Shown: positions 1-28,684 of the stretch, one piece after another
Layout of the letters: every line of letters starts with the position of its first letter
Numbering within the stretch: position 1 is the stretch's first letter
Position numbers and translations under genes: made by a program
The notes under the pieces: generated by a model
Told to the model about the DNA's origin: nothing
The model's database searches: none
Seen by the model: only the letters and a program-made list of their open reading frames with translations
Source: Acidimicrobiia bacterium UBA2766
GTDB lineage: Bacteria; Actinomycetota; Acidimicrobiia; UBA2766
Assembly: GCA_002352645.1 (NCBI GenBank)
Contig: DEIU01000004.1
Location: forward strand, 234 to 64,233
Direction of reading: 5' to 3'
Length of the DNA: 64,000 bases

Positions 1-938
1 CGGATTTTCGCACGATAGCCGGCCAGGGGATCGCGCGTCCGAGTGCGGATCTGCTCGATACCGTGTACCTGTGTGAACAGCGCCAGGAATGGTACCGCGA
101 CTTTGCCTATGCCAATCGGGAAGAACGGGTGGGCTTTGTTGGCATGTGCACGACGTCGACTCCTGTGCTCGAAGCCGCAGCAGCGATGCGAGATAGTCTC
201 GATTTCGATTTTGCGCACCGCCCAAAGTTTTCAACTTGGGCTGAGGCGCTCAGCGATCTGACGGAACGGGCAGAAGCAGCCGGTTTGCTTGTGATGAGGA
301 GCGGGATAGTCGGGAGTGACTCGCATCGCAAGCTTGACCCGCAAGAGTTCCGGGGGTTCGCTTTGGTCGACGACCTTGCGCCTGTGGTCTTCATCAACAC
401 AACGGATACGAAAGCCGCACAGATTTTCACGCTTGCGCACGAGCTTGCACACCTCCGGCTTGGCCAGAGCGCACTGGACGACCTTCCTGGCGGGGGCTTT
501 TCCGAGAGTGATAGCGAAGACTGGTGCAATCAAGTCGCAGCCGAGTTCCTTGTCCCGCGCGAAGAACTCGAGCAAGAGCACGATTCTGCAAATGGTCCCA
601 CCACGAAGGAGCTTGACCGGCTTGCCTGCTTCTTTAAAGTAAGCACACTCGTTGTGCTCCGTCGGATCTACGAGCTTGGCCAGATTAGCTGGGACGAATA
701 CCAAGTTGTCTACCAGGAGGAGCAAACAAGAGTGCTCGACATTGCCGCGGCCCGGCGAAGTCGCAGTGGTGGAAACTTCTACAAGACAGTTCCGGTACGA
801 ACAAGTAAACGATTCGCGCGGGCGGTCATTACCAGCACGCTTGAAGGCAAAATCCTGTATCGGGATGCAGCACACCTACTTGGTTTCAAGAAACTCTCTG
901 TCCTCTACAAACTCGGTCGGGATCTCGGTATTGCATAA
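1..938 (+). CDS. ImmA/IrrE-family (DUF955/M78-like) zinc metallopeptidase, probably 5'-partial (frame open to window start)
   Basis: ORF 63..938 has an HEXXH motif (FTLAHELAHLRLGQ) typical of ImmA/IrrE peptidases. The reading frame has no stop back to nt 3, so the N-terminus likely lies upstream of the window. Confidence 0.55.
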   Translation, partial: DFRTIAGQGIARPSADLLDTVYLCEQRQEWYRDFAYANREERVGFVGMCTTSTPVLEAAAAMRDSLDFDFAHRPKFSTWAEALSDLTERAEAAGLLVMRSGIVGSDSHRKLDPQEFRGFALVDDLAPVVFINTTDTKAAQIFTLAHELAHLRLGQSALDDLPGGGFSESDSEDWCNQVAAEFLVPREELEQEHDSANGPTTKELDRLACFFKVSTLVVLRRIYELGQISWDEYQVVYQEEQTRVLDIAAARRSRSGGNFYKTVPVRTSKRFARAVITSTLEGKILYRDAAHLLGFKKLSVLYKLGRDLGIA

Positions 939-940
939 AA

Positions 941-1462
941 ATGGCCTATCTACTTGACACGAACGCCTTCATTGAAGCAAAAAACCGCTGGTATGGCTTT
1001 GATTTCTGCCCGGCATACTGGACCTGGCTCGAGTCCATGAATGCAGCAGGGACCGTTTTCAGTATCGAGAAGATCAAAAACGAGATCGAAGCCGTCGACG
1101 ACGAACTTCTTTTCTGGGCGCGAACCCGGGGAGAAGCCTTCTTCTTGCAACCAGACGAAAAAGTGATGGAAAGTCTGACCGAGGTGAACACCTGGGCTGC
1201 GGAGAGCACCCACTACGACCCAGCCGCCATCAGGACCTTCTTTGATATTGCAGATTCGTATCTCGTCGCCCATGCGCACGCGTACGGTCACATTGTCGTG
1301 ACACAAGAACAAAAAGCAGACTCCCGTAAGAAAATAAAAATCCCGAACGCGTGCCTTGAGCTGCAAGTCGAGTATCTCGACGTCTTCAGGATGCTCCGAA
1401 TGGAGGGAGCAAATTTTGTTCTCGGAAACAACCGGCGACCTCCGGAGCCACCTGAAAACTAG
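941..1462 (+). CDS. DUF4411-like PIN-type nuclease domain protein (putative toxin/effector partner of the ImmA/IrrE peptidase)
   Basis: 173 aa, starts MAYLLDTNAFIEAK (PIN-like 'LDTN' acidic start). It begins 3 nt after the upstream peptidase gene. The DUF955+DUF4411 pairing is a recurrent two-gene module. Confidence 0.5.
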   Translation: MAYLLDTNAFIEAKNRWYGFDFCPAYWTWLESMNAAGTVFSIEKIKNEIEAVDDELLFWARTRGEAFFLQPDEKVMESLTEVNTWAAESTHYDPAAIRTFFDIADSYLVAHAHAYGHIVVTQEQKADSRKKIKIPNACLELQVEYLDVFRMLRMEGANFVLGNNRRPPEPPEN

Positions 1463-2016
1463 CCAGTGTCAGTCATCTGTGTGCTGTCTTGTCTGTGATG
1501 TTTGGCCAAATGCGTAGAGGTGATCTTTTCTTCGTTGTCAGTTGTCGAGTGAAGTTGATGAGCCAGTCGTCTGGGTTGTTTGCTGTGATGATCACTTCGC
1601 ATGCAGCTGTTTCGGGTGCAGCAGTGGGTACAGCAGAAGGAAGGGGATGAGTGTTTGGGTGCATGCGTTCTCTTGCCTCTTGAGCGCAGGCCTGGGGTCG
1701 GAAAGATTTTGGCAAGGTCCCCGGAGTGGGGAGGCTTTCCTGGGGCTGGAAAGAGTTCGGGGAGGTGTGTGGTGTAGGAGTTCTTTCTGGCTCGGGGGGC
1801 TTGAAGGGGGCGAGGTTGAGGGGAGAGAGGGGCATATTTTTTTTGGGGTGGCTGTGTATTGTGTTTTTTTCTTGATGGGCTGAATCGATTTTTTTGGAGC
1901 ATTGCGGGTTTTCTGTTTATGCCCTTCTTGCAGGTTTTTCATGTTGTGCGATTGATGTTTTGTTGTCTTTTTTTGAGAAAAGAGGTGTATGGTGCCTCCT
2001 TTTCGTGGCCAATTTT

Positions 2017-2052
2017 GGGAGAAGAAGAGAAGAAGAGAAGAAGAGAGAGAGG
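2017..2052. repeat. (GAA/GAG)n purine microsatellite within a 770-bp non-coding spacer
   Basis: gagaagaagagaagaagagaagaagagagagag read directly; flanked by G-runs at about 1690-1850. Confidence 0.5.
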
Positions 2053-2230
2053 TATCGCTGGGGTATGTGCAGAAGACAGAACCGATAGGGATATGTGCAG
2101 TTCCCTCATTTCCTGTGCCCTTCAGCCTAGGTACTACACATGCAGTCGATTATTGCATGCTGTGAAGAATTGCACAGTTTGGTATCAGCCTCCTTTCTGT
2201 GGGAGTTCGGACCGAGGGACGTGAAGAGAG

Positions 2231-4459
2231 ATGCCACCTTCGACATCTACCCGCAATAGCATCGCAGATCTTGTCGATCGCCGGCGCGCTTTTGCTGCTG
2301 CTGCTGAGCAGCGACGCGAGAGAATCGAAAAACTGAATTTGTCGCTGCAACAGCTGGCTCGTTTGCGCGAGAGGTTGTTGCGTACCTGCGACCAGGACGA
2401 TTTTGTTCATGAAGAAATGCGTATCTTTTACGACAAGATTCAGTCACTTGACGCGGACACTCTGTGTAGGCGCTTGCGGTCAGAGATGCAGGATTATGAC
2501 GGGGCACGTTCCCGTTTTAGCCGTACTACTTTGAATATCGCGGTGATCGGTCGTGCTCGTCAGGGGAAGAGCCGACTGCTGCAGGCGATTACCGGTTTGT
2601 CTTCCCGCGAACTTCCTGACGGAATGGGAGAAAACTGCACTGGTGTGAAGAGCACTATCTATAACAGTCAGACGACTGACCCTCACGGTGAGGTGTTCTT
2701 CCACGATGATGCTTCCTTTATAGGGGATGCAATCGGACCTTATTACGAGATGCTTGCTCTTGGGCCTCCTCCTTCTTCGATTGCTTCGTTTGCGAGCCAC
2801 CGGATTCCGGCGGCTTCCATGGAGGAAATGACCGTTCGTCAGACTGCGATGTATGACCGTTTGCAGATGATGCAGGAGCATCTTGACGAGTACCGTGATC
2901 TGTTGGGTGCAGAAAAGCGTCGTATTCCGCTAAGTCAATTGCGTGAATATGTGGCTCAGGACACTCCGGAAGGACGCCGTGATTACCGTAAGTATTTTGC
3001 GGTACGTCATGTGCATGCATATTGTGCTTTTCCTAATATGGAAGACGCTCCTATCGCGGTGATCGACCTTCCAGGCTTGGGTGATACGGGTTATGGTGAC
3101 GAAGAGCGTTTGCTGAATACGCTGAAGACCGAAGTTGATTTTGCGTTCTTCGTTCGTATGCCGCGCAGTACCGGAGTCGGCGACAGTTGGGCCGACATTG
3201 ATCTTGACTTGTACGACACTGCGAACAGCTCGCTAGAGGCCCTTCGTCTTGCGGACTGGTCGTTTTTGGTTCTGAACAAGGTACAGACCAAGAACAGCAA
3301 TAATGCTGATACTTGCGACATGCTCCGGTCTTCTCTTCCCCGTCAGTTTTTCTCCAGTGCCCAGTGTATTGTGGCGGACTGTGCAGAGGAATCAGAGGTC
3401 GAAGGCAAGGTACTTACCCCCGCTTTGGAATACCTTGAGACGCATCTTGAGGGTCTCGACCGAGAGTACGATGCGTACCATTCGAGAGAGCTTGACAAGC
3501 TTGTGACTGAGGTTGAGGGGACTCTTTCTTTTGCGGGAAGAGCTGTGACGCTGGGGCGAAGCGCCGATGCAGAAGCCCACGAAGTGTACAAAGATCTCTT
3601 CGATGACTTCTGGCACAAGATTTCAACAGGGCTTGAGCGTCTTGTGCGGGAGTTGAAAGAGACTCGTGACAGCGAAGACGAGCACTTCCGTCAGCATGTG
3701 GTTGCTCTCATTGAACACTGTGCAGAGACGGTGCCGCTCCCGACAGAAGACGAGATTTCCTCACGGCGAGACCATCGGGGTTCCTACGACACTGCCTATA
3801 GCGATTTCAGGAACGAGATGCGTTCCCAATTGTCACGCGAGTTCCTTCGCCTTGACAATGTGCTGCATCAGAGCATGGAAGAACTAAAGCAGCGGGTTGT
3901 CGAAATCTTGTGCTCAAGTGTGCGATTGGACCGTTTGGTTTCGATTGATGGTGGAGCGTCTCCCTGGTTGCATGGGTTCGGGAATGAACTGCCTCCGGAC
4001 TATCACCGCTTGAAAGAGGGATTCAGCGTCCTTGCCGGTTTTGAGCTCTCCTATCGTGGATTCATTCACCACCGGATCCGTCGAGAGCTTGATGTGCTGA
4101 CTCCTGACAGTGCAACGTCCTTTTCGCTGCCCACTCCCGCGGATTCTGCAATGGTGCGGGAACGTCTTGACGCGGCCTACCGGGAAGCCCTGCACGAGGC
4201 CGAACCTGCTCTTCTTGCTCTTGCCGCAGAGCCTAGCCAAGCGGCTTTCGGTATTACGGAGGAATTCGTGGACCGTATCTTGCGTGCGAAGCGAGTGGAA
4301 CGAGAGTGGGATGTGTATTTGAATAGGCACCGTCTGGTGCTTTGGCCCGAGGTGTTTGACCGTATCGGGGAATTGATGGAATTGAAGCAGGAGTGGGTGG
4401 AGGCTGTAACCCATGCGAGACATGCGACGGATGATCTCTCCCGCCTGCTTCCCCGGTGA
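2231..4459 (+). CDS. Dynamin-like large GTPase (bacterial dynamin-like protein; LeoA/IniA-like)
   Basis: 742 aa with an N-terminal coiled coil, P-loop G1 (GRARQGKSRLL), dynamin-type G3 (AVIDLPGLGD), an NK-type G4 (LVLNKVQTK) and a long helical C-terminal stalk. Confidence 0.7.
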   Translation: MPPSTSTRNSIADLVDRRRAFAAAAEQRRERIEKLNLSLQQLARLRERLLRTCDQDDFVHEEMRIFYDKIQSLDADTLCRRLRSEMQDYDGARSRFSRTTLNIAVIGRARQGKSRLLQAITGLSSRELPDGMGENCTGVKSTIYNSQTTDPHGEVFFHDDASFIGDAIGPYYEMLALGPPPSSIASFASHRIPAASMEEMTVRQTAMYDRLQMMQEHLDEYRDLLGAEKRRIPLSQLREYVAQDTPEGRRDYRKYFAVRHVHAYCAFPNMEDAPIAVIDLPGLGDTGYGDEERLLNTLKTEVDFAFFVRMPRSTGVGDSWADIDLDLYDTANSSLEALRLADWSFLVLNKVQTKNSNNADTCDMLRSSLPRQFFSSAQCIVADCAEESEVEGKVLTPALEYLETHLEGLDREYDAYHSRELDKLVTEVEGTLSFAGRAVTLGRSADAEAHEVYKDLFDDFWHKISTGLERLVRELKETRDSEDEHFRQHVVALIEHCAETVPLPTEDEISSRRDHRGSYDTAYSDFRNEMRSQLSREFLRLDNVLHQSMEELKQRVVEILCSSVRLDRLVSIDGGASPWLHGFGNELPPDYHRLKEGFSVLAGFELSYRGFIHHRIRRELDVLTPDSATSFSLPTPADSAMVRERLDAAYREALHEAEPALLALAAEPSQAAFGITEEFVDRILRAKRVEREWDVYLNRHRLVLWPEVFDRIGELMELKQEWVEAVTHARHATDDLSRLLPR

Positions 4460-4508
4460 TCCTTTTTGCGATTGCTGAAGATGCACCGATCTTTATATAG
4501 GGAGCGAA

Positions 4509-5600
4509 ATGGTCGGGAGACCCAAGCTCGATAGAGTCGATGTGATGATGCTTGGCCCTTCCGGTGTGGGAAAAACGAGCCTCCTCGCCGCGATGTACGA
4601 GCAATTTGCTGAGAATGTTCACGCTACAAATCTTACGTTGGTGCCGGACAAGTCCAGTCATGACCTATTGGAGAAGCGTCTTCGCGAACTGCGAAGCATT
4701 CCTGATGCGTTTGTCATGAAGGGATGGATGCCCGGCACAAAACAGGGACAGTCTTTTCATTTCCGTATTGGGAAAAATGGCAACGAGGACGATGGCACCT
4801 TTGTTGAGGAAGACGCGGACGAGAAGTCAAAAGACTCGAAACTCGCTGTGTGCTTCCATGATTTTCCTGGTGGGGATATGTCGAGTGATGATCCCGCGCA
4901 TCGCCGGCGAGTCTTGAACCTCTTACGAGAAGCGCGAGCGGTATTTGTTGCCATTGATACGCCTGCGCTTCTTGAACGTGGAGGCAAATGGCACGACAAA
5001 GTGAACCAGCCGGCGCGTGTGACTCGACTTTTCCAAGAAGCCTACGGTGGTATGGACTCAGAGACATTAGACCAACGTCTTGTGGTTTTTTGTCCATTGC
5101 GTTGCGAACGTTATGCGGAGGTTTCGCCGACAACTGGAGTCCGATACAAAAATCAGCGGGAGCGTCGTTCTCTTGGGGATGCGGTAGAAGTCGGGTATGC
5201 AAGCCTCATGCGCTTTTTTCAGGAAAGTGAACTTTTTCGGGAGAAGGTCGCTCTTGTTGTGACTCCTGTACAGACGATTGGCGGTGTGCGCCTTACTCGT
5301 GTCGAAGAAAATAAAGACGAAAACGCTTCTACCTTCTATTTTCGTCATGTAGGGGTTGGGCCTGGGTATGGGCCGGTTGATACCGATCAGCCGCTCCGTT
5401 ACTTGCTGCGTTTTATTTTGCAGTCCTATGTTTCTCGCCAGGAGACAGAGTGGGGGCCGTTCAAGCGGATGCGGCGCTGGTTTGGTGTAGATGAGGAGCT
5501 GGTAGCAGCGGCGCAACAGTTTGCAAATGGCTGTAAGCTCTCTGAAGATTTCCGCATTTTGCAGGGAGACGAGTTGCTTGGCATGGCGCTCGAGTCCTGA
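4509..5600 (+). CDS. Short paralogous dynamin-like GTPase (LeoB/LeoC/IniC-like partner)
   Basis: 363 aa with Walker A (GPSGVGKTSLL) and G3 (CFHDFPGGD), followed by a (V/A)FVAI pattern paralleling the upstream protein's DLPGLGD...FAFFV. It starts 50 bp after the upstream stop on the same strand. Confidence 0.65.
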   Translation: MVGRPKLDRVDVMMLGPSGVGKTSLLAAMYEQFAENVHATNLTLVPDKSSHDLLEKRLRELRSIPDAFVMKGWMPGTKQGQSFHFRIGKNGNEDDGTFVEEDADEKSKDSKLAVCFHDFPGGDMSSDDPAHRRRVLNLLREARAVFVAIDTPALLERGGKWHDKVNQPARVTRLFQEAYGGMDSETLDQRLVVFCPLRCERYAEVSPTTGVRYKNQRERRSLGDAVEVGYASLMRFFQESELFREKVALVVTPVQTIGGVRLTRVEENKDENASTFYFRHVGVGPGYGPVDTDQPLRYLLRFILQSYVSRQETEWGPFKRMRRWFGVDEELVAAAQQFANGCKLSEDFRILQGDELLGMALES

Positions 5601-5624
5601 ACGAACGGCGGGGGAGAGACCTTT

Positions 5625-6299
5625 GTGAAGGCGTTCGTCCAAACGCGCGGTTTTGCGCAGCATGAGGAATATCGATGGTATCCGAGTGAACCGAAAAATA
5701 TCGCATTCTCTGACATTCTTCAGCTTGTCGACTTAGGCGCGCCTTCTGTTGTCTTATGGCGTCACGAGGGAAATCTGCATTGCATGGTTTCAGGCCTCGA
5801 TGCTCGACGAGTGGATTTTCGCGACCGTCCTATCGAAAACTCTCTTGTGGTGATGGGCGGGCCGCGCGAAGGTCTTGACATTCAGTCGATCGCGTCAGAG
5901 GCCCTGCGTTTTCCTGAGACTCTCGCTTGTCTTGTGAGAGATAATATGGACAAAGAAGACGTCAACGGGAATGGGGACCCTCTGGTGCGTCCTCTGCGTC
6001 AAGTGGTGCTCCGTAAAGAGCTTGTTCTCAATGCAAACGATGAAATGGGTGTGCGTAAGGTCGCCAAAGACTCAGAAGAGAAGAGGGTGCATTTGGCGAG
6101 TTTGATTGAGACCACCCGTCTTCCAACGGTAGATGGCCCTCTGCTCCTTTGTACCGATCATAAGCCGGAAAAAGTTCTCGTGGATGCTGGTGTATGGCGG
6201 GGCTTGTCGACGCTGATAGAAGCAAGTGGGTGGAAAATCGTGGGGGAGAAGCCTCGCCGGAAAACCCGGGGTATTGGTCTGCTACGCCGGCGATTCTGA
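5625..6299 (+). CDS. Hypothetical protein, third gene of the GTPase operon
   Basis: 224-aa ORF with a GTG start 25 bp after the upstream stop. No recognisable motif; coding assignment rests on operon context. Confidence 0.45.
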   Translation: MKAFVQTRGFAQHEEYRWYPSEPKNIAFSDILQLVDLGAPSVVLWRHEGNLHCMVSGLDARRVDFRDRPIENSLVVMGGPREGLDIQSIASEALRFPETLACLVRDNMDKEDVNGNGDPLVRPLRQVVLRKELVLNANDEMGVRKVAKDSEEKRVHLASLIETTRLPTVDGPLLLCTDHKPEKVLVDAGVWRGLSTLIEASGWKIVGEKPRRKTRGIGLLRRRF

Positions 6300-6345
6300 G
6301 TTTCCCAACTTTTTGTTCTCTGTGGAGGGCGCAGCTTTCCCACAT

Positions 6346-7584
6346 TCATGGTTTGCTCTCGGTGTTGTGTACCGGCGGGAACCAAAAGGGGCCAAAAGGG
6401 CCTGTCTCTGTCTCTGGCTCTACCCCCAAGAGAACACTCGCGAACATTTTTTCGTAGAGTTGCAAGGTCGCAGCGGGGCCGAAACGAGCGTGCGCCCGCT
6501 CCCGAATGGCATGCTGATTGAATTCCCTGTAGCGGTTCACCGTGTGTGTAATGGCATGTGCCAAAGCCGTTGGATCATTCGGTTTGATAACGCGACCATC
6601 TTCTTCCCCCACAAAATATTCTGGGCCCCCACAGCGTGTCACGACGGTGGGGAGACCGGAAGCCAAAGCCTCCGCTGCCGCCACACAAAAGCTTTCTACT
6701 CTGGAAGGAAGAACGAAAATATGTGCTCTTTCCAAAAACCCGGCTATTGCGGAAGGAGGCTGGAATCCGTGGAATCGAACGCGGTCTGCAATCTGATATT
6801 GCTCGACGAGTTCTTCGGCATCTTTGCGTCCCTCTCCGTCGCCCACGAGGTCGAGTTCAAAGCGGGAGGGAAGCTTGGACATGGCTTTGATAAGCGTGGA
6901 CGTTCCTTTTTGTGGATGGAGCCGACCCACTGCAATAAGACGTACTTGTTCCTTTTCGAGGAGCGTACGCGATGGAAGATGGAATTTGTCTGTGTCGACA
7001 GCAAGAGGAATGGGATAGACGGGACGGTCCAGCATGTCAGCTACATCTGCTGCACAGGACGGACCACTTGCGCAGAGGAGGCGGGCGCGATGTTTCATCG
7101 TCCACATGGAGAATCGTTCAATCCGTCGTTCAGTGACTGCCGCTAAGTCGGGAGCTTCTTCTTGGTAAATGAGAGGAAGACGTAAAAGTGCTGCGACGAT
7201 TGCCGCGGTGACCCCAATGGGATGTGCAAAACGTACATAAACAAGGTCAAAAGGCTGTTCTGCATGGAGACGGCGCGCGCGACGCGCGATCTCGATTGCT
7301 CCCCTTGCCTGCCGGCCTGGTCCGCTTCCTGGCCGCACAAGCGGATCCTCGTAGAGGTTTCCATGGTCAGGTAGAGAAGGCTCGGGAGTTTCCTCACTCA
7401 TGCCGAGAAGCGCGACAGAATGGCCGGCACGGGCCAGAAGATGGGCCACTTCGCGGGCTGGAGTGAGTGCCGTTGGGTTTGTCCTGGTTGGCCAGAAAGG
7501 CATGATCCAGAGAAGGCGAAGAGCGCGCCCTTTGAAAAGGCCAGATGCCGAAATAGCGCGGAGATCTTGCTCACTTATTTTCAT
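6346..7584 (-). CDS. GT4-family (GT-B, group 1) glycosyltransferase
   Basis: C-terminal EX7E-type motif region (VLPSRVESFCVAAAEALASGLPTVVTRCGGPEYF). The true start is probably internal (MPFWPTRT...). Confidence 0.75.
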   Translation of the reverse strand: MKISEQDLRAISASGLFKGRALRLLWIMPFWPTRTNPTALTPAREVAHLLARAGHSVALLGMSEETPEPSLPDHGNLYEDPLVRPGSGPGRQARGAIEIARRARRLHAEQPFDLVYVRFAHPIGVTAAIVAALLRLPLIYQEEAPDLAAVTERRIERFSMWTMKHRARLLCASGPSCAADVADMLDRPVYPIPLAVDTDKFHLPSRTLLEKEQVRLIAVGRLHPQKGTSTLIKAMSKLPSRFELDLVGDGEGRKDAEELVEQYQIADRVRFHGFQPPSAIAGFLERAHIFVLPSRVESFCVAAAEALASGLPTVVTRCGGPEYFVGEEDGRVIKPNDPTALAHAITHTVNRYREFNQHAIRERAHARFGPAATLQLYEKMFASVLLGVEPETETGPFGPFWFPPVHNTESKP

Positions 7585-7958
7585 ATATGCTCACAAGCGG
7601 CAGAAAGTTGGGAGTGTTGACCGGCTGCTGACCGGTGTGGTGTTTTTTCGCTTCCGTCAGGTTGTTCTCCCTTCTAGAGGGCGATCTTTTTGTTGTGAAT
7701 TTCTGTCGTAAAAGCTTTTTCTCACGATTTACCAGATGCATGTGGCTATTGTAGAGAGTTCTGCTATGTGGCAATTTTTAGGAAAAGTTCTCTATAGGGC
7801 GAGAGACTTTTGGTTACTGAAGCTATTGTTGTTGGAGAAACTGTGGCCATGTCAGCAAATTTTCTCCTTATCTTCTAGACTTTGTAGTGGCCTTCTTGTT
7901 TTTTTGCTCCGCGTGGTTTCTCCTATCACTTGGGGTATTTTTTGGCACACTTGTAGTT

Positions 7959-8579
7959 ATGTTCCATTTTTCGCAACAGCATATTGATGCTTTCCTCCAA
8001 GACCTCGCTTCCTCGGCCCCTGCTCCTGGGGGCGGAGCAGTCTCGGCTCTGCAAGTCGCGATGGGTGCAGGGCTTGTCATGATGGTTTGTAACCTTACGA
8101 AAGAGGACCCTGAAGGGCGTGTTGCTGCGACTTTGCAACAGGCTGAAGACCTGAAAACGAGAGCGGTCGCTCTTGCTGATGAGGACGCGGCAGCTTTCCA
8201 AAAGGTGATCGACGCGTACGCGCTGCCGCGTGCGACAGCGGAACAAAAACAAGCACGCTCCAACAATGTGCAAGATGCCTTGAGGGGGGCAGGCAGTGCT
8301 GCGTTACGCATTGTGCAGGCAAGTCTCGAAGTTGTGTGTCTTGCGAGCGAACTTGCCCCTCACGCAAATCCTCATGTCATTACCGATGTGGGATGTGCTG
8401 CGTGTTGTGCACAGGCGGCAGCTGCAGGGGCAGGCTTGAATGTACGAGTGAACGTCTCTTTATTGCGAGACGCTGCTGGGACGGAGGAGATGTTGGCTGC
8501 ATTGAGGGAAAACCTCTCCGCGATAGAAAAAGCCGTTACCGCTACTCTTGTCTTCGTCGAAAAGGACCTGCCCTCATGA
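7959..8579 (+). CDS. Cyclodeaminase/cyclohydrolase family protein (formiminotetrahydrofolate cyclodeaminase / methenyl-THF cyclohydrolase, FchA/FTCD-C-like)
   Basis: HIDAFLQDLASSAPAPGGGAVSALQVAMGAGLVMMVCNLT is the characteristic motif. ORF 7887..8579; probable start is Met25. Its stop overlaps the folD start (ATGA). Confidence 0.7.
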   Translation: MFHFSQQHIDAFLQDLASSAPAPGGGAVSALQVAMGAGLVMMVCNLTKEDPEGRVAATLQQAEDLKTRAVALADEDAAAFQKVIDAYALPRATAEQKQARSNNVQDALRGAGSAALRIVQASLEVVCLASELAPHANPHVITDVGCAACCAQAAAAGAGLNVRVNVSLLRDAAGTEEMLAALRENLSAIEKAVTATLVFVEKDLPS

Positions 8580-11742: not shown

Positions 11743-11814
11743 GGCGGAGTAGCTCAGTGGCAGAGCAAACGGCTCATAATCGTTGTGTCGGCGGTTCGAA
11801 CCCGCCCTCCGCCA
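11743..11814 (+). tRNA. tRNA-Met (anticodon CAT; G1-C72 pair so elongator type, or possibly tRNA-Ile2/LAU)
   Basis: GGCGGAGTAGCTCAGTGGCAGAGCAAACGGCTCATAATCGTTGTGTCGGCGGTTCGAACCCGCCCTCCGCCA gives a cloverleaf with anticodon loop CT-CAT-AA. Confidence 0.8.
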
Positions 11815-12211
11815 CTCTTTTTATATGACTTCTTGGTGTATTTTTTCTGCGTTTTTTGTAGGAGTTTACTTTCCCGATAAAGCAGCTCTTAATCTGCGTT
11901 CATGCTACAAGGGGTGTGACGCAGGGAGCGTCGGAATGTTTTTCTGAAAATGCTGATGGCGCTTTTTTGGGCAGATTTTCTCGAGTAAACACTGTGCTGT
12001 GTTGTGTGTGTATCGCGTGGGGGACCGGTCTATTTCTCGCTTTTGCAGATCTGTTATGCGCTCTGTCTGTAAATTCCGGTTTGTCGGTGTTCTTATGCTT
12101 TCTCCGGAGAGGTTTTCCTAGACTCTCTAGGTGCGACTACCTCTTGGAGTATTCTGAAGTGGAGATCCGGGGGGGAAATCAGGGTATGGGCTGAGAGTTT
12201 TCAACGAAGTC

Positions 12212-13964: not shown

Positions 13965-14038
13965 AGGGGCGTAGCTCAATCTGGTAGAGCACTGGTCTCC
14001 AAAACCAGCGGTTGAGGGTTCAAATCCTTCCGCCCCTG
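13965..14038 (+). tRNA. tRNA-Trp (anticodon CCA)
   Basis: AGGGGCGTAGCTCAATCTGGTAGAGCACTGGTCTCCAAAACCAGCGGTTGAGGGTTCAAATCCTTCCGCCCCTG is near-identical in architecture to E. coli tRNA-Trp and sits at the conserved tRNA-Trp-secE-nusG position. Confidence 0.85.
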
Positions 14039-14174
14039 CAAGATGATGTCTTCCGTTTTCCTATGCCACACAGGTATTGGGAACGGTTGGTGTTGCGAGC
14101 AGGGTGCTCTAGAAGTGAGAGCAGCAGGCCACGGGGTGCTCTTCGGGTTTGCAGGAGAGTGACAAGGATCGTTT

Positions 14175-19664: not shown

Positions 19665-22600
19665 TTGGCCGTTACGGCGCGCCCCGGTATCCGTGACCGT
19701 GTCTCCTTCGCCACTATCGAAGAAGGCTTACCGCTACCAGATCTCCTCGCTGTTCAAAAGAATTCTTTTGAATGGTTTATGCACGAAGGCATTGCCGAGG
19801 CCCTTCATGAGATCTCTCCCATCGAAGATTATTCGGGAAACCTTATCCTTGAGTTCGTTGACCACGAGTTTGAGGGTCCGAAATATTCTATCGAAGAATG
19901 CCGCGAACGGGATATGCAGTATGGCTGCCCTTTGTTCGTGACTGCCCGGTTTGGGAACCGTGAAACTGGTGAGATCAAAGAACAGCGAGTGTTCATGGGG
20001 GAATTCCCCATGATGACTCCTGCTGGAACTTTCATCATCAATGGGACAGAAAAGGTTGTTGTCAGTCAATTAGTGCGTAGTCCCGGCATTTATTTTGACG
20101 TTTCGACTGATAAAACTTCTGAAAAACTTCTGCATGGTGCCAAGGTCATTCCTGCCCGTGGTGCTTGGCTGGAGTTTGATATTGACAAGCGTGGCACGGT
20201 CGGTGTCCGGATTGACCGGAAGCGACGTCAGATCGTGACAATTTTATTGCGAGCGCTTGATTTTGGTGAAGTTGACCTTTCCACTAATGAGAGTATTCTC
20301 GAGTATTTTGGGGGGAATGAAGGTATCAGCGCGAGCTTGGAGCGCGATCATACTACGACGCGTGAAGAAGCTCTTATTGATATTTACCGGAAGCTTCGGC
20401 CTGGTGAACCGCCTTCAGTTGAAGCATCTCGTGGCCTGCTTGACCAGCTTTTCTTTTCGTCAAAACGCTACGATCTCTCTCGTGTGGGCCGCTACAAGAT
20501 CAACCAGAAGTTTGCTCTTTCCCCTGAGGCACACAAAGTTCATATTCTGACTCCCGACGACATTCTCCGAACAGTAAAGTACCTTGTGGACTTGTCCGAG
20601 GGGAAAAACGGTTTCTCGATTGACGACATCGATCATTTTGGAAATCGGCGAGTGCGGGCAGTGGGTGAACTCATTGCCAATCAGGTTCGTATTGGGCTTA
20701 CCCGTATGGAACGGGTTGTGCGTGAACGGATGACTACACAGGAAGTGGAGGCTATTACCCCCACGACCTTGATCAATATCCGTCCTTTGACTGCCGCAAT
20801 CAAAGAGTTCTTTGGTACTTCGCAGCTGTGTCAGCTCTATGACCAGACAAATTCCTTGACAGGCCTCACGCATAAACGACGCCTTTCGGCCCTTGGTCCT
20901 GGCGGGTTGTCGCGTGAACGAGCTGGTTTCGATGTGCGAGACGTGCATCCTAGTCACTACGGGCGTATGTGTCCGATTGAGACGCCAGAAGGTCCGAACA
21001 TTGGGCTGATCGGCTCTCTTGCAACCTACGCGCGAATCAATGATTACGGTTTTGTCCAGACTCCCTACCGTAGGGTTTCTGAAGGGGTCGTCCTCGACGA
21101 AATTTGTTATCTCGACGCGCACGAAGAAGATCGGTACACTATCGCACAAGCAAATGCTCCTATCGATCATGATACGGGGCATTTCAAGAATGACCGAGTG
21201 CTTTGCCGGCAGAAGGGCGAACCCGCTTATATTTCTCCGTGGCAAGTCGACTACATGGATGTTTCCCCGCGGCAGATTGTGTCTGTTTCGGCCTCTTGCA
21301 TTCCCTTCTTGGAGCACGACGACGCAAACCGGGCTCTCATGGGGTCCAATATGCAACGTCAGGCAGTGCCTCTTCTCCAAGTAGAAGCGCCCTATATCGG
21401 GACAGGAATGGAAGCGAGAGCGGCGCTCGACTCTGGGGATCTCCTGCGGGCCGAAGAAGATGGGGTTGTTACCGAAGTAGCCGGCGACCGTGTCGTGATT
21501 GAAACCTCGGGGACTGGGGAACGTCACACTTACCGTCTCTCCAAATTCCGTCGCTCGAACCAGTCAACCTGCATCAGCCAGCGTCCAATTGTGGAAGCAG
21601 GCATGCGGATTACCAAGGGAGACGTCCTCACGGACGCTGCGAACACCTCCCAAGGTGAGCTGGCTTTGGGGAAGAATCTACTTGTGGGCTTCATGACTTT
21701 TGAGGGCCACACGTTCGAAGACGCCATTGTGGTCTCCGATCGCCTCGTGCGTGATGACGTGTTGACGTCAGTGCACATCGAGGAGTACGAAATCGAAGCG
21801 CGTGACACCAAACTGGGTGAAGAAGACATCACGCGTGACATCCCCAATGTGTCCGAAGAGGTTCTTCGAGACCTTGATGAACGCGGAATTATTCGTATTG
21901 GGGCTGAAATTGGCCCAGGCGACTATCTCGTTGGCAAGGTAACTCCAAAAGGAGAGACTGAACTCACGCCAGAAGAGCGTTTGCTGCGGGCCATATTTGG
22001 TGAAAAAGCACGCGAAGTGCGGGATACTTCTCTCAAGGTTCCGCATGGAGAGTGGGGAAAGGTCATTGACGTCCGAGTGTACAGCCGGGAAGACAATGCT
22101 GACCTGAACCCTGGCGTGAATAGGCTTGTGCGTGTGTATGTGGCACAGAAGCGCAAGATCTCCGTTGGTGACAAGCTTGCGGGACGACATGGGAACAAGG
22201 GCGTTATTGCCACAGTACTACCTGTGAATGACATGCCTTTCCTTGCCGATGGGACTCCCCTGGACATTCTTTTGTCCCCATTGGGTGTGCCGACTCGAAT
22301 GAACGTGGGGCAGGTTCTGGAAACCCTTTTGGGTTGGGCCGCCTACAACGGATGGGAAGCAGGTCCTTGCGCTTCCGACCCGGGAAACGGCAAGATCGCT
22401 TCTGTTCGCGAACCGGCATCCTATATTTCGACGCCTATTTTTGATGGCGCGCATTGGTCGGATAATGAGGCCCAGGACGCCGGCATGAATCCGGACACGG
22501 GAGTACCGCACCAGTCTATTCAGGAGATGCTGCGGACATCTCGCTCTGGGCATGGTCTTCGACTCATTGGTGAAGACGGGAAAGCTCAGCTCTATGACGG

Positions 22601-23093
22601 GCGCACGGGTGAGCCTTACGATCGTCCAATTGCTATTGGTTTCATGTACATCTTGAAACTTTTGCACCTGGTTGATGACAAGATTCACGCCCGTTCGACC
22701 GGGCCTTACTCCATGATTACCCAACAGCCTTTGGGTGGAAAAGCCCAGTTTGGGGGGCAACGCTTCGGAGAGATGGAAGTGTGGGCGCTCGAGGCCTATG
22801 GGGCTGCGTATTGCCTGCAGGAACTGCTCACTATTAAGTCAGACGACGTGTTTGGCCGTGTCAAGGTCTACGAAGCCGTTGTCAAAGGCGAAAATGTTCC
22901 TGATCCTGGTTTGCCGGAATCGTTCAAGGTGCTGGTGAAAGAAATGCAGTCGCTGTGTCTCAATGTTGAAGTGCTCTCGCAGGAAGGCACGGAGATCGAG
23001 ATGCACAACTTCGAGGAAGACGCTTTCCGTACTGCCGAAGAACTGGGCATCGACATCTCTCGTCCAGAGCGAAGCGAAGTCGAGGAGGCATGA
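19665..23093 (+). CDS. rpoB: DNA-directed RNA polymerase subunit beta
   Basis: 1142 aa with conserved blocks throughout. TTG start is forced by an in-frame TGA at 19656 and is preceded by AAAGGAG. Confidence 0.9.
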
Positions 23094-26000
23094 GCACGGT
23101 GGCAGCGATCCAGCAGTCTCGGAATACTGATCTTCGTTTTGATCAAGTGCGTATTGGTCTTGCCACACCCGATCAGATTCGGGCGTGGTCAAACGGTGAG
23201 GTGAAGAAGCCCGAGACAATTAACTACCGCACCCTGAAGCCTGAGATGGAAGGCTTGTTTTGCCAGCGTATTTTTGGTCCAGTGAAAGACTGGGAATGCG
23301 CCTGTGGCAAGTACAAAAGGGTTCGCTTCAAGGGGATCATCTGCGAGCGCTGCGGTGTTGAGGTCACGCGTAAAAGTGTACGCCGGGAACGTATGGGTCA
23401 TATCGAGCTAGCGGCTCCTGTGACTCACATTTGGTATCTCAAGGGTGTTCCAAGCCGTCTTGGCTATCTTCTCGACGTTTCTCCAAAGGATCTTGAACGC
23501 GTTATCTACTTTGCTTCCTACATTGTGACGCATGTGGACCAAGAGAACCGGACAGCAGCTCTGCCGGAACTCGAAGTGCGTATGCGTAATGAATCTGACG
23601 AAGTCTGGAAACTCTACGAAGAGCGTGAGCAAAATCGTATGCTCCGCGTTGAAGAGGAACTTGCCTCGTTGGAAGAGGCAGGAGAATCTGCCGAGGAGAT
23701 TGAGTCTCGCCGTAAGCAGTTCGACAAAGAGATGCGAAAAGATTCGCAGCGGGATCGCGAACGTGTTGAAGAAGAAACGCAGCATCTGAGCGAAGTTTTC
23801 ACGACCTTTAAGGGCCTGAAAGAGCGGCAGCTTATAGAGAACGAATTCGTTTGGCGGGATTTGCGTGAGCGCTACGAAGAGTATTTTTCTGGTGGCATGG
23901 GTGCCGAGGCGATCCGGGAATTGCTTGAAACCATTGACCTAGATCAAACAGAAAGTGCGTTGCGCGAAGAAATTATCGTTAGTAAAGGACAAAAACGCGC
24001 ACGCGCTACCAAGCGTCTCAAAGTAGTGGCGGCTTTCAATCAGGGCGAAAACCGTCCTATCGGCATGATCCTGGAGTGTGTACCTGTTATCCCTCCGGAC
24101 CTTCGTCCAATGGTGCAGCTTGATGGTGGACGTTTTGCGACGTCCGACCTGAACGACCTGTACCGGAGAGTGATTAACCGGAATAACCGCCTGAAACGAC
24201 TGCTCGATTTGGGTGCTCCGGAGATCATTGTTAATAATGAAAAGCGCATGTTGCAGGAGGCCGTAGACGCTTTGCTCGATAATGGGCGTCGTGGTCGACC
24301 TGTCACGGGACCAGGGAACCGTCCTCTAAAGTCTATTTCGGACATGTTGAAAGGCAAGCAAGGCCGTTTTCGTCAAAACTTGCTTGGAAAGCGTGTCGAC
24401 TATTCTGGTCGATCGGTGATCGTCTGTGGTCCTCGTTTGCGTTTGCATCAGTGCGGGCTTCCAAAGCAGATGGCGTTGGAACTCTTCAAGCCTTTCGTTA
24501 TGAAACGTTTGGTGCAACAGGACTTGGCAGCCAACATCAAGTCTGCCAAACGCATGGTGGAGCGTCCGCGCCCTCAAGTCTGGGACATCCTCGAAGAGGT
24601 GATCAGCGAGCATCCCGTACTTTTGAACCGGGCACCTACTCTGCACCGTTTGGGTATCCAAGCTTTCGAGCCAGTGCTTGTGGAAGGGAAGGCCATCCAG
24701 ATTCACCCGTTGGTGTGCGCGGCGTTTAACGCGGACTTCGACGGGGACCAAATGGCTGTGCACGTCCCCTTGTCAATTGAGGCACAGGCTGAGGCACGAA
24801 TTCTCATGCTCTCGGCAAATAACCTGTTGTCTCCTGCTCATGGCCGCCCTCTTGTGACTCCGACGCAAGACATGGTGATCGGGGCGTTCTATCTCACAGC
24901 AGATCCTCCGAATGAACCTCCAGCAGAGATTCCAGTCTTTACTTCTCCAGTCCAAGTGCGTTTTGCCTACGACTCTTTTCTTGGGGACGGCAAGCGTGTT
25001 CTGAACTTGCATGACCGAGTCAGAGTGCGTGGTCTGAAGCCATCTCTACAAGATGAAATAATAGAGACCACAGTCGGACGCGTTATTTTCAACTCGACTT
25101 TTCCGGACTCGTATGGCTACGTCAACGAAGTCATTAAGAAAAAGGACTTGGGCCGTTTGGTCATAGAGTTGTACGAGCAGTGTACGCACACAGAAATTGT
25201 GAGGACGCTCGACAACCTGAAAGAGCTCGGGTTCCATTTCGCCACCGTGTCGGGTCTGACGTTTTCGATTGATGACGTGAAAGTGCCTGATGAAAAGTCC
25301 GATATTCTTGATGTCTACGAGAAGCGGGCCGAACGAGAGGAAAAAAACTACCGGGCAGGTGCGATCACGGAGCAGGAGCGTCGTCAGCGTTTGATTGAAA
25401 TCTGGCAAGAGGCTTCTGACAAAGTGAAAGATGCAATGGTCTCGAGGATGGGGAAAGATCCGTTTAACCCTATCCAGATGATGACCGACTCTGGTGCTCG
25501 TGGCCAGGTTATCCAGGTACGTCAGATTGGTGCGATGAGGGGTTTGGTAGCAAACCCAAAGGGCGAGATTATGCCTCGTCCTATCAAATCCAATTACCGT
25601 GAAGGACTCTCGGTTCTCGAGTACTTTATTTCCACGCACGGTGCACGTAAAGGACTCGCTGACACCGCGCTACGAACGGCAGACTCTGGTTATTTGACCC
25701 GTCGTCTTGTCGACGTTGCCCAAGAAGTCATCATTCGCGATGATGATTGTGGCACGACCCGAGGCATTGCGGTCCAGGTCAGCGAAGAAAAGCGGTCTTT
25801 GGAGAGCCAGCTGAAGGGCCGCTATCTCATGGAAGACCTTGTGGATGGGACCACAGGGGAAATCCTTCTCCACACAGGTGACCCAATCAAACGTACTCTC
25901 CTTCTTTCTATCGCGAAGGCAAAAATCGAATCTCTAAAAGTGCGTTCGGTTCTCTACTGCCAGTTGCGAGATGGGGTGTGCTCGAAGTGCTACGGCTTTG

Positions 26001-26983
26001 CTCTTGACACAGGAAAAAAGGTAGAGACGGGAGAGGCAGTCGGAACGATTGCGGCACAGTCTATTGGAGAGCCTGGAACCCAGCTCACTATGCGGACTTT
26101 CCACACTGGGGGTATCGCAGCAGGCGGTGACATCACACAGGGTTTGCCTCGTGTGCAAGAGCTGTTTGAAGCACGGACCCCGAAAGGGAAGGCAGAGATT
26201 TCCCACTCTTCTGGCCAGGTACGGATCCAACGTGACGAAGAGACGATGGACCGGACCATTATCGTTGAAGACGAGGATGGAGAAGAAGAGACACACGAGG
26301 TCGGTCGGCGAGTACGGATCCTTGTGGAAGACGGGGACAAAGTTTCTCCCGGCGATCCTCTGACCTTCGGTCCAATTGACCCGAAAGAACTGCTCGAGGT
26401 GAAGTCGAGTCGGGCTGTGCAAGAATATCTGGTAAATGAAGTGCAGCGTGTGTACTCCAGCCAGGGTGTTGACATTCACGATAAGCATATTGAGCTGATC
26501 GTGCGTCAGATGATGCGCAAGGTTGTGGTACAAGAGTCGGAAGAATCTGACTTTTTGCCTGGCGAGCGTGTGGACCAGCGTGTTTTCCAAGAGGCAAACA
26601 GGGTTTTGGTACAGGAGGGCAAAACCCCTGCTCAAGCTCGGCAAGAGCTGATGGGAATCACGAAGGCATCACTTGCGACAGACTCCTGGCTATCTGCTGC
26701 TTCCTTCCAAGAGACAACGCGGGTTTTGACAGAGGCTGCAATTGAGGGCAAGAGCGACAGCCTGAGAGGGTTGAAAGAGAATGTCATTATTGGCCGTCTC
26801 GTGCCGGCGGGAACGGGAGTTCGTTCTTATCGAGAGGTTGACCCGGACTTCCCTGAAGGTGCCGAAGTCATTAGCGTGCACCCCTTCTTCCAGACAGGTG
26901 GAGAAGAACAAATGTCGGCTGAGGAAGCTGCTGACTTCCTTCGTAAGATCGGAACTGGGTCTGTAAATACGGACGCTTCTTAA
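23090..26983 (+). CDS. rpoC: DNA-directed RNA polymerase subunit beta'
   Basis: Zn-binding [23 protein letters not shown], the NADFDGD catalytic motif and the C-terminal block. ATGA overlap with rpoB. Confidence 0.9.
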
Positions 26984-27027
26984 AGTGAAGGGGAAGAAGG
27001 GAAATCCTCTTCCCCCTCACTTTTTTG
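26984..27027 (+). terminator. Intrinsic terminator after rpoC
   Basis: AGTGAAGGGGAAGAAG-GGAAATC-CTCTTCCCCCTCACTTTTTTG: GC-rich stem followed by a T6 tract. Confidence 0.5.
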
Positions 27028-27047
27028 TGCAGACCAGCGAAAGAGTT

Positions 27048-27446
27048 ATGTCGGAGACAGAAAATCCAGGCCAATCAGATAATCCTTCTGTGTATGAAGT
27101 AGTTGGCGGAACTCCTGTTTTTCGTCAGATTGTGGATGCTTTTTATGCGGGTGTCGAGCAGGATACGCTGCTTCGTCCGATGTACCCTGAGGATCTTTCT
27201 GCAGCGAGAGAGCATCTTTTCTTGTTTCTCGTGCAGTATTGGGGAGGTCCCCCAGATTATTCCGCGCAGCGGGGGCATCCTCGGTTGCGGCGGCGGCATT
27301 TTCCTTTCCCTATAGATGAGGCTGCTCGTGATGCCTGGATGCATCATATGACGGGTGCGCTTGATGGCACTGGAATGCCTACTGAAGCACGCGAACAAAT
27401 GCGTGCTTACTTTGAGGATGCTGCAAGTTTTTTGATGAACAAGTGA
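27048..27446 (+). CDS. Group II truncated haemoglobin (2/2 Hb, trHbO-like)
   Basis: YEVVGGTPVFRQIVDAFYAGVEQDTLLRPMYP ... GHPRLRRRHFPFPIDEAARDAWMHHM. Start taken at Met22 of the ORF because the first 20 codons are the rpoC terminator hairpin. Confidence 0.7.
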   Translation: MSETENPGQSDNPSVYEVVGGTPVFRQIVDAFYAGVEQDTLLRPMYPEDLSAAREHLFLFLVQYWGGPPDYSAQRGHPRLRRRHFPFPIDEAARDAWMHHMTGALDGTGMPTEAREQMRAYFEDAASFLMNK

Positions 27447-27837
27447 AGAGAATTTTTTCGGTTTGCTCGTTCATTGTGTTTTTGTTTTTCTTGCGTGGCA
27501 GCTATACTTGGGAAACTTCTGATATGGGAAGGGCGCTTGTTCGCGCCTTTTGTCGTCGCTTTAGTGTTTTGAGTTGGCATTTCATTTCGTATGCTTGCTT
27601 CACGCCTCAACATGTTCCTTCCGGTAATGTCCGGTTGTTGATGTCCGATATGCTGTGCGATGGCGCCCATGTTCCAGTGGACCGGTCTCAGTTTTCTTGT
27701 TGGTTTCGGTCCTCGGTTCGAAAAATATTCGAGGTGTCGTTTTCCGTGTTGCGAATCTTGTAGAGAGGACTGCAAGGTCGTCGCGGTGTGCCAATCTGGT
27801 GTAATGAACGAGCCGAAGAGTCAGGCGAGGGTCCACG

Positions 27838-28209
27838 GTGCCGACTATCCAGCAGCTTGTCCGTCAGGGACGTAAGAGCAAGCCCAAGAAAAATGCCACT
27901 CCGGCATTGAGCGGTTCGCCTCAACGACGTGGTGTGTGCACGCAGGTAAAAACGCACACTCCGAAAAAACCGAACTCGGCTTTGCGGAAAATTGCTCGAG
28001 TGCGGCTTATGACTGGAGTTGAGGTGACTGCGTATATTCCTGGAGAAGGACATAACCTCCAGGAGCACTCGATTGTGCTTGTGCGTGGGGGCCGTGTGAA
28101 AGACCTTCCAGGTGTGCGCTACAAGATCATCCGCGGCGCTCTTGACGCAGCAGGTGTTGAAGGGCGTCAGCGTAGTCGTTCTCTATACGGTACGAAGAAA
28201 GATAGTTAA
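27838..28209 (+). CDS. rpsL: 30S ribosomal protein S12
   Basis: [12 protein letters not shown]...[10 protein letters not shown]...[17 protein letters not shown]; GTG start. Confidence 0.9.
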
Positions 28210-28213
28210 TCCG

Positions 28214-28684
28214 ATGCCTCGAAAAGGTCCTGCTCCACGGCGAGATTTGAATGCCGATCCAGTGTTTCACTCTGTGCTGGTGACCCAGCTGGTGAACAAG
28301 GTACTCCTGCATGGAAAGAAGACCACTGCAGAACAGATTGTCTATAAGGCTCTGGATATTTGCGCAGAACGGGCAGGCTCTGATCCAATTCAAATATTGA
28401 AGAAAGCCATTGACAATGCCCGTCCACACTTGGAAGTGCGTAGTCGGCGTGTTGGCGGCGCGACCTATCAGGTGCCGGTCGAGGTTCGCCCGCGACGTGG
28501 TGTGTCATTGTCTATTCGATGGATTGTGCAGTTTTCCCGGAAACGGCGAGAGAAGTCGATGGCCGAGCGTCTTGCCGGCGAATTGCTCGACGCAGCAAAT
28601 GGTGTCGGGGCGGCAGTGAAACGTCGTGAAGACACCCACAAAATGGCTGATGCGAACAGAGCCTTTGCTCACTATCGCTGGTAA
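28214..28684 (+). CDS. rpsG: 30S ribosomal protein S7
   Basis: [36 protein letters not shown]. Confidence 0.9.

Follow-up and report, generated by a model that had tools for sequence, protein, structure and literature searches.

The window analyzed here is a 64,000-nucleotide (nt) stretch of the genome of Acidimicrobiia bacterium UBA2766 (assembly GCA_002352645.1, contig DEIU01000004.1, positions 234 to 64,233 of the forward strand). At its start lie two co-directional genes: open reading frame 1 (ORF1), which encodes an M78 (ImmA/IrrE-type) zinc peptidase, and ORF2, which encodes a DUF4411 PIN-like protein. The two genes probably form an autonomous type II toxin-antitoxin (TA) or abortive-infection module of the class that couples a helix-turn-helix (HTH)-M78 peptidase to a DUF4411 PIN protein. 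A peptidase-DUF4411 pair at this position had been proposed in an earlier note made from the window sequence, and Pfam confirms both families: ORF1 matches PF06114 (Peptidase_M78; E=2.6e-15, 56.7 bits, cutoff 22), and ORF2 matches PF14367 (DUF4411; E=1.3e-50, 171.7 bits, cutoff 23.5) over the whole profile (1-159/159). Both matches are far beyond chance. One correction is needed, namely, that ORF1 is incomplete in the window.

The pair is collinear with VapBC52 of Mycobacterium tuberculosis

ORF1 is open in frame 3 of the plus strand from base 3 to a TAA codon at 936-938 and runs off the 5′ edge of the window. ORF2 extends from an ATG at 941 to a TAG at 1460-1462 on the same strand and encodes 173 amino acids (aa) with the N-terminus MAYLLDTNAFIEAK; two bases (939-940) separate it from the ORF1 stop codon. 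An exact-sequence look-up of ORF2 returned a 4.1-kb contig (L002) and a 91.7-kb metagenome contig of the same lineage as the window (L001), in which window base 1 corresponds to position 6434. Full-length ORF1 is a 388-aa protein (L001:6205-7371), and the window, which begins at residue 78, holds its C-terminal 311 residues. The 77 residues absent from the window, recovered from L001, form an XRE-type HTH domain. An HTH upstream of the window had been raised as a possibility for the N-terminus of the peptidase, and one is indeed present in L001, where Pfam HTH_3 matches below threshold (E=0.0014) and ORF1 matches PHROG 2439, annotated “transcriptional regulator” (2e-32).

When ORF2 was compared with all PDB sequences, the sole matches were the VapC52 chains 9vzy_D (E=4e-7) and 9vzz_A. 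The best PDB match of full-length ORF1 was VapB52 (9vzy_A; phmmer, E=2.4e-22), and the alignment of ORF1 residues 9-381 of 388 with VapB52 residues 4-383 of 393 is collinear over three domains. IrrE, by comparison, aligns with only ∼95 residues of ORF1 (E=0.002-0.003). VapBC52 is the M. tuberculosis pair Rv2515c/Rv2514c, which was characterized in June 2026 (PDB 9VZY and 9VZZ; Singh et al., NAR 2026, PMC13273310). VapC52 is a DUF4411 PIN tRNase, and VapB52 is a 415-aa antitoxin with an N-terminal HTH domain, an M78 domain in the middle, and a C-terminal domain that occludes the toxin's active site, the two proteins associating with a VapB52:VapC52 stoichiometry of 1:2 (PMC13273310). The zinc ligands of VapB52 are H216, H220, and E245, with a capping residue, Cys229, that forms a “cysteine switch”; single-stranded DNA (ssDNA) induces a HEXXH-dependent self-cleavage that removes the N-terminal domain, and an FR motif (F75-R76) has been proposed as the probable cleavage site (PMC13273310). 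VapC52 inhibits growth and is neutralized by VapB52; it also cuts the tRNAs of phage D29, and its overexpression leads to phage resistance (PMC13273310).

The predicted structure of ORF2 is consistent with this relationship. The AlphaFold2 (AF2) model has a predicted local distance difference test (pLDDT) score of 93.5, and its top Foldseek matches are PIN toxins of the VapC/FitB type (3h87, 3zvk, and 2h1c), together with 6sd6. The Foldseek library extends to April 2026, and its matches to the model include neither 9VZY nor 9VZZ chains. The similarity of ORF2 to the classical PIN model PF01850 is below threshold (E=0.003). The acidic tetrad of the PIN active site is intact and invariant among homologs (Table 1), and the VVTQE motif that carries the fourth acidic residue is identical in VapC52. 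The first acidic residue corresponds to the position changed in VapC52 D6A, a designed active-site variant that was crystallized (PMC13273310). Had ORF2 belonged to a non-PIN family, the earlier proposal would have fallen; both its sequence (PF14367) and its predicted fold uphold it as PIN-like.

The conserved features of ORF1 were assessed in an alignment of 75 proteins, comprising the partners from 73 of the 80 related loci described below, the window protein, and VapB52. D78 and R80 of the FR motif are invariant (75/75), and the intervening F is present in 84%, within the sequence P-[ILV]-P-D-F-R-T; the motif occupies the first three codons of the window. H223, E224, and H227 of the HEXXH motif are invariant in all 75 proteins. 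The earlier note had made the M78 assignment dependent on a further zinc ligand downstream of HEXXH, and such a ligand is present as E249, which is invariant (75/75), as are C252 and N253. Judged from sequence, the pair thus shares every VapBC52-type feature that can be assessed in this way except the cysteine switch.

The two genes are strictly coupled across phyla

A scan of GTDB species representatives yielded 80 related loci at 51-62% identity, spanning Actinomycetota, Pseudomonadota, Verrucomicrobiota, Planctomycetota, Acidobacteriota, Chloroflexota, Myxococcota, Bacillota, and others; in total, 2297 DUF4411 homologs of ORF2 were found at E<=1e-5. In 80/80 loci, the gene that immediately precedes DUF4411 on the same strand encodes an M78 protein. 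Its stop codon overlaps the DUF4411 start codon by 1 nt in 66 of the 80 loci and by 4 nt in another 6, and the two codons abut in 4 more (76/80 altogether), which suggests translational coupling; the gap in the window is 2 nt. The lengths of the ORF1-like partners cluster tightly at 379-387 aa.

None of the 80 DUF4411 loci contains homologs of the neighbors of the pair, i.e., LmuB, LmuC, and the 742-, 363-, and 224-aa proteins described below. The invariable pairing, combined with the lack of common neighbors, indicates that the pair is a self-contained, horizontally mobile unit. Many of the loci lie among restriction-modification (R-M) genes: an HsdM-like methylase is encoded in 23/80 loci, invariably in the same orientation and in most cases 1-4 kb upstream, and HsdM or HsdR in 25/80, such that ∼30% have co-oriented type I R-M genes. 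A plasmid of Acetobacter vaccinii (RefSeq NZ_CP043507.1, 69467-77949), for example, carries the gene order hsdM-hsdS-ImmA/IrrE metallo-endopeptidase-DUF4411-Abi (abortive infection)-hsdR. Homologs of the pair were detected in 42 plasmid records, including 22 conjugative ones, but in no more than 2 of the 50,697 phage records. These contexts identify the pair as an autonomous, mobile, defense-island module, and the 80/80 pairing, the type I R-M genes in 25/80 loci, and the 42 plasmid records bear out the expectation of the earlier note that the arrangement recurs in defense islands, TA modules, and mobile elements.

The conserved coupling also bears on the interpretation of ORF1 as an anti-repressor protease of the ImmA/IrrE type that serves a mobile element or a DNA damage regulon, with ORF2 as an unrelated nucleic acid enzyme that is no toxin. 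The M78 domain is common to ImmA, IrrE, and CapP, as reflected in the IrrE alignment noted above and in a match of ORF1 to the PADLOC capP model (1e-11), and the PHROG annotation as a transcriptional regulator agrees with such a role. We nevertheless regard this interpretation as extremely improbable: the locus has no separate ImmR-, DdrO-, or CapH-like repressor and no integrase or CBASS (cyclic oligonucleotide-based antiphage signaling system) genes, the HTH and the peptidase form a single chain, as they do in VapB52, the match that spans the full length of ORF1 is to VapB52 rather than to IrrE, and the translationally coupled pairing with a PIN protein holds in 80/80 loci.

Proposed mechanism of the module

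For the toxicity of ORF2, its neutralization, the trigger, the self-cleavage, and the RNA target, we propose the following scheme by analogy with the characterized systems. ORF2 would be an Mg- or Mn-dependent PIN endoribonuclease, probably a tRNase. ORF1 would bind an ORF2 dimer through its N- and C-terminal domains, thereby occluding the nuclease, and would probably autoregulate the operon. A danger signal, most likely ssDNA or damaged DNA arising from phage infection or DNA damage, would activate the M78 peptidase, as in VapB52 and CapP. Activated ORF1 would then cut its own chain at the P-x-P-D-F-R-T linker, detaching the toxin-binding N-terminal domain, and the freed PIN nuclease would cleave tRNAs or other RNAs, leading to translation arrest and to abortive infection or growth arrest.

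The pair lies beside a Lamassu locus without lmuA

Upstream of ORF1, beyond the left edge of the window, L001 encodes LmuC and the structural maintenance of chromosomes (SMC)-like protein LmuB of a Lamassu defense system (Table 1). ORF1 starts 277 nt past lmuB, and the same arrangement is found in three strain variants. We gathered related loci of the same Lamassu subtype through LmuC homologs and a metagenome scan; an LmuC scan of viral contigs gave no match. The gene order in the relatives L087, L088, and L093 is lmuC-lmuB-lmuA (LmuA match, 1e-121), and lmuA directly follows lmuB in every one of the ∼40 metagenome loci whose sequence extends 2 kb or more past lmuB. No LmuA was detected by tblastn with the L087 and L093 proteins in the window, L001, or the strain contigs L083 and L086, and the PADLOC LmuA models match neither ORF1 nor ORF2. 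Lamassu defense needs all of its components (10.1101/2022.05.11.491447).

The position of the pair raises the question of whether it has replaced LmuA as the effector of the LmuC-LmuB sensor, yielding a new Lamassu variant in which the sensing of DNA ends by LmuBC would be coupled to a protease-gated PIN nuclease. The gene order is lmuC-lmuB-lmuA in every informative relative, and the pair occupies the lmuA slot, with no lmuA remnant, in all three strain variants; moreover, Lamassu and VapB52/CapP all respond to aberrant DNA according to the literature. Against this, 0/80 DUF4411 loci contain lmuB or lmuC, and 0/80 lmuC loci contain M78 or DUF4411 genes. There is no match to an LmuA model, so the LmuBC-docking domain is absent; the pair is self-sufficient elsewhere, the constraint on lmuB/lmuC is relaxed (see below), and a single lineage amounts to a single event. 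Replacement of LmuA is therefore very unlikely, and we likewise give little credence to a hybrid Lamassu in which LmuBC would produce or present the DNA signal for activation of the peptidase, with the pair as the effector arm and the PIN nuclease being freed. Most likely, the pair came to lie in the usual slot of lmuA by chance, and the simplest reading is that of an orphaned lmuCB beside an independently acquired TA pair.

The sequences around lmuCB contain further features. A 12-nt inverted repeat (GCTGTTCTGGTA N7 TACTGGAACAGC) is located directly past the lmuB stop codon (L001:5939-5969), and an 11-nt direct repeat (ATAGTGATACG and ATTGTGATACG) occurs upstream of ORF1 at L001:6033-6043 and 6131-6141, 98 nt apart; the inverted and direct repeats could be a candidate terminator and candidate operator sites for the HTH domain, respectively. 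In the ∼1.6 kb upstream of lmuC (L001:1640-3232), neither strand has an ORF longer than ∼150 aa, and L086 has an equivalent gap. PADLOC gave no match to this segment at E<=1 in the three plus-strand frames, and neither Rfam families nor tRNAs are present in it. The idea that it contains an lmuA pseudogene was considered and rejected because no PADLOC match was found and tblastn with the L087 and L093 LmuA proteins came back empty; the segment may be a decayed gene or a long leader. Neither Rfam families nor tRNAs were found near the pair, in window 1-8000 or in L001. As a marker of an island, the GC content, 0.48-0.58 across L001, shows no clear shift.

Table 1 Features of the pair and of the adjoining Lamassu genes (window coordinates unless L001 is given; A1 and A2 are alignments)
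Feature	Position	Strand	Basis
LmuC, 219 aa (outside the window)	L001:3233-3892		PADLOC PDLC03872, 2e-68
LmuB, SMC-like, 679 aa (outside the window)	L001:3889-5928		PADLOC PDLC03864, 1.7e-138
ORF1, VapB52-like predicted antitoxin/sensor: M78 middle domain and C-terminal helical domain	3..938	+	PF06114, VapB52 alignment
Asp-Phe-Arg (D78-F79-R80), FR motif at the junction of N-terminal and middle domains	3..11	+	Conservation, alignment with VapB52 D-F75-R76
HELAH zinc-binding/catalytic motif (H223, E224, H227)	438..452	+	Read directly; aligns with VapB52 H216/H220
Asp236, at the position of the VapB52 “cysteine switch” Cys229	477..479	+	Gap-free alignment from HEXXH
Glu249, third zinc ligand, E-x-W-C-N motif	516..518	+	Aligns with VapB52 E245 and the IrrE Glu
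ORF2, DUF4411 PIN-like nuclease, predicted toxin (VapC52-like)	941..1462	+	PF14367, VapC52 match, AF2 model
Asp6, first PIN acidic residue	956..958	+	Invariant in A1 and A2
Glu48, second PIN acidic residue	1082..1084	+	Invariant in A1 and A2
Asp54, also invariant	1100-1102	+	A1 and A2
Asp105, third PIN acidic residue	1253..1255	+	Invariant in A1 and A2; aligns with VapC52 “AADPF”
Glu123, V-V-T-x-E motif, fourth PIN acidic residue	1307..1309	+	Invariant in A1 and A2

Substitutions between strains and other evidence against a functional module

Several observations weigh against the reading of the pair as a functional TA module. Selection was estimated by comparing the window/L001 with L083 for the pair and with L086 for lmuB/lmuC. 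On small counts, with two or three strain variants per gene, the pair has 24 nonsynonymous and 9 synonymous substitutions, a ratio that fits neutrality (binomial p=0.54). The values for lmuB/lmuC are 46 and 16 (p=0.54 versus neutrality), whereas those for the GTPase operon downstream of the pair, taken with a glycosyltransferase gene and FolD, are 3 and 13 (p=2e-6 versus neutrality); comparison of the pair with the downstream genes gives a Fisher p of 6e-4. Because the substitutions in the pair are neutral-like, purifying selection on the module in the window lineage is not demonstrated. In addition, the proteins depart from columns that are at least 90% conserved at 7/66 positions in DUF4411 and 9/135 in M78, which is above the 90th percentile of the relatives. 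One such departure lies beside the active site of ORF1, where residue 229 is Arg and 92% of relatives have Trp.

Further points on the same side concern annotation and regulation. No PADLOC model matches ORF2 at E<=0.01, and no toxin model does. The identity of the pair to VapBC52 is only ∼24%. Upstream of ORF1, no convincing promoter or operator was found; there is no sigma-70-like site, and only weak features are present. Finally, the cysteine switch of VapB52 is not conserved, since ORF1 has D236 at this position. Ser occupies it in 68/75 proteins (91%), Asp in 6/75, including the window protein, and Cys in VapB52 alone. Ser is a poor zinc ligand. In astacin zymogens, an Asp caps the zinc (“aspartate switch”), and Asp236 could in principle cap the zinc in the same manner. 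With Asp in ORF1 and Ser in most relatives, the auto-inhibition must differ from that of VapB52.

These observations are also what favors the interpretation of the pair as a decaying or silent remnant in a degrading defense island, next to a Lamassu system whose effector has been lost. Near-neutral substitution in both the pair and lmuB/lmuC, constraint in the flanking genes, a number of conserved-column departures higher than in most relatives (W229R among them), and an adjoining Lamassu that lacks one of its required components all agree with decay. However, the reading frames of the pair and of lmuB/lmuC are free of stops and frameshifts in every variant at ∼2-3% divergence, and the catalytic and motif residues of the pair are all kept. 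The departures from conserved columns fall within the range of the relatives and are mostly conservative, and one of them, H122Q, is shared with the active VapC52. The counts are small, and a high ratio of nonsynonymous to synonymous substitution rates (dN/dS) is typical of defense and TA genes under diversifying selection, which would fit the data as well.

The DUF4411 alleles illustrate the ambiguity. Between window 941-1462 and L083:2412-2933, there are 13 nonsynonymous and 2 synonymous differences, several of them at residues 58-65, and one, G156R, lies in the C-terminal helix. Either diversifying selection on the interface with the antitoxin or a relaxation of constraint could explain this pattern, and the substitution data as a whole fit diversifying selection, relaxed selection, or early decay. 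Considering both sides, we regard a remnant as unlikely, and the pair as a TA module that is likely, to judge by its preserved residues and frames, to be functional in the window lineage at present.

The downstream operon and the remainder of the window

Between ORF2 and the GTPase operon lies an ORF-free spacer of 770 nt (window 1463-2230). It is G/T rich, contains runs of poly-T as well as a purine tract, (GAAGAG/GAAGAA)n, at ∼2020-2050, and has no Rfam match. The spacer is 99% identical in four strain contigs except for a 14-nt indel at ∼1636 and is thus better conserved than the DUF4411 gene. A terminator-like hairpin is located at L001:8429-8445 (approximately window 1982-1998).

The operon itself (window 2231-6299) encodes proteins of 742, 363, and 224 aa. 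The 742-aa protein has weak similarity to Dynamin_N and LeoBC (E of ∼1e-3 to 1e-4), the 363-aa protein matches DO-GTPase2 (PF19993) at 27.2 bits, barely over the gathering cutoff of 27, and no match was found for the 224-aa protein. With 0 nonsynonymous versus 8 synonymous substitutions between strains, the operon is under strong purifying selection, and it is probably a separate conflict or defense system. Two roles for it were considered and rejected. As a partner of the pair, the operon is contradicted by the 0/80 loci with homologs of its three proteins and by the different selection regime; as a divergent LmuA, the 742-aa protein gives BLASTP E values of >1 and matches no LmuA model. The earlier note had taken the position of the pair directly before this operon as support for calling the first 6.3 kb accessory. 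The pair and the operon lie in the same island, but the adjacency is found in 0/80 loci elsewhere and the operon is under different selection, which makes it a neighbor and not a partner. The orphan lmuC-lmuB, the TA pair, and the DO-GTPase operon together make up a composite defense island that extends ∼4.8 kb past the left edge of the window.

Farther downstream, tRNA-Met and tRNA-Trp genes are located at window 11743-11815 and 13965-14039, respectively. Large ORFs within 19665-32447 were taken as rpoB, rpoC, and fusA from their size and order, and the ORF at 31260-32447 was identified as EF-Tu by a PDB search. No other protein shares the 90% cluster of this EF-Tu, suggesting that the lineage has been sampled poorly. 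A glmS ribozyme is present at 55531-55711 (61 bits).

Implications for the VapBC52 family

The analysis gives a confident functional label to two genes for which automatic annotation would offer “ImmA/IrrE family metallo-endopeptidase” and “DUF4411 family protein,” and it ties the pair to a prototype for which crystal structures are available and a trigger has been proposed. The VapBC52 family is large, is distributed over many phyla, is strictly coupled, and is often found within type I R-M operons; the wide distribution and the frequent type I R-M context support an antiphage role beyond mycobacteria. The placement of the window pair in the lmuA slot of a Lamassu locus that lacks lmuA is an unusual one.

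Among the proteins compared, the sequences indicate universality for the FR cleavage motif and for the zinc ligands but not for the cysteine switch. Since 74/75 proteins have Ser or Asp at the switch position, the cysteine switch cannot be the general means of auto-inhibition in the family, and the activation mechanism proposed for VapB52 and CapP needs to be revisited for most of its members.

Comparison with known systems

RosmerTA (RmrA/RmrT; Millman et al. 2022; Ernits et al. 2023, PMC10440598) resembles the pair in function, and its antitoxin likewise combines an Xre HTH with an ImmA-type zinc peptidase, and ORF1 matches 16 PADLOC RmrA models (best E=7e-18). RosmerTA is a TA module that acts in phage defense, and the ImmA hub is reported to pair with PIN-like toxins as well. 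The similarity between RmrA and ORF1, however, is largely limited to the peptidase domain, and ORF2 matches no PADLOC RmrT model, which places the pair outside RosmerTA as PADLOC defines it. The RmrT toxins described so far are of unknown function or depolarize membranes.

The CapP/CapH, IrrE/DdrO, and ImmA/ImmR systems share with ORF1 an M78 peptidase, which in these systems is activated by DNA damage or ssDNA and cleaves an HTH protein. They differ in that the substrate is a separate repressor, whereas the HTH of ORF1 is fused to the peptidase and would be cleaved in cis, and in that their output is derepression, whereas the output proposed for the pair is toxin release. CapP is similar to ORF1 only in the peptidase domain and has a Cys switch that ORF1 does not, and no CapH repressor or CBASS operon was found in window 1-8000 or L001. 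ORF1 lacks the GAF domain of the IrrE type, and there is no integrative and conjugative element or radiation regulon near the pair.

Classical VapBC and FitAB modules resemble ORF2 in the alpha/beta/alpha PIN fold and the acidic active site, as judged with Foldseek. Their antitoxins are 8-13 kDa proteins of the ribbon-helix-helix, AbrB, or PHD type, in contrast to the 388-aa multidomain peptidase encoded by ORF1, and ORF2 has a DUF4411-specific C-terminal helix that distinguishes it from their toxins.

The closest correspondence is to the class that VapBC52 exemplifies. The pairing of COG2856-Xre with PIN proteins was predicted early, with Rv2515c named as an example (Makarova et al. 2009, PMC2701414), and DUF4411.1 was subsequently assigned to the VapC group of PIN-like families (Matelska et al. 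2017, PMC5499597). In the DUF4411.1 three-component TA class, as in the window, a single-domain DUF4411 gene with four conserved acidic residues lies directly 3′ of a fused HTH-DUF955 (M78) gene (PMC5499597). There is no architectural difference from the window pair, and the class itself was a bioinformatic prediction without a mechanism (PMC5499597, PMC2701414). VapBC52 and the window pair have in common the antitoxin-then-toxin order, a DUF4411 PIN toxin with the same acidic residues and VVTQE motif, and an antitoxin composed of an XRE-like N-terminal domain, a D-F-R linker, an M78 domain carrying HEXXH plus Glu, and a helical domain at the C-terminus. The two pairs differ in host phylum and genomic context; the loop from HEXXH to Glu is 3 residues shorter in ORF1, and ORF1 (388 aa versus 415 aa) is without the disordered 23-residue N-terminal extension of VapB52. 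The window pair is thus a distant relative of VapBC52 and belongs to a kind that is already known, its novelty being lowered by the characterized homolog.

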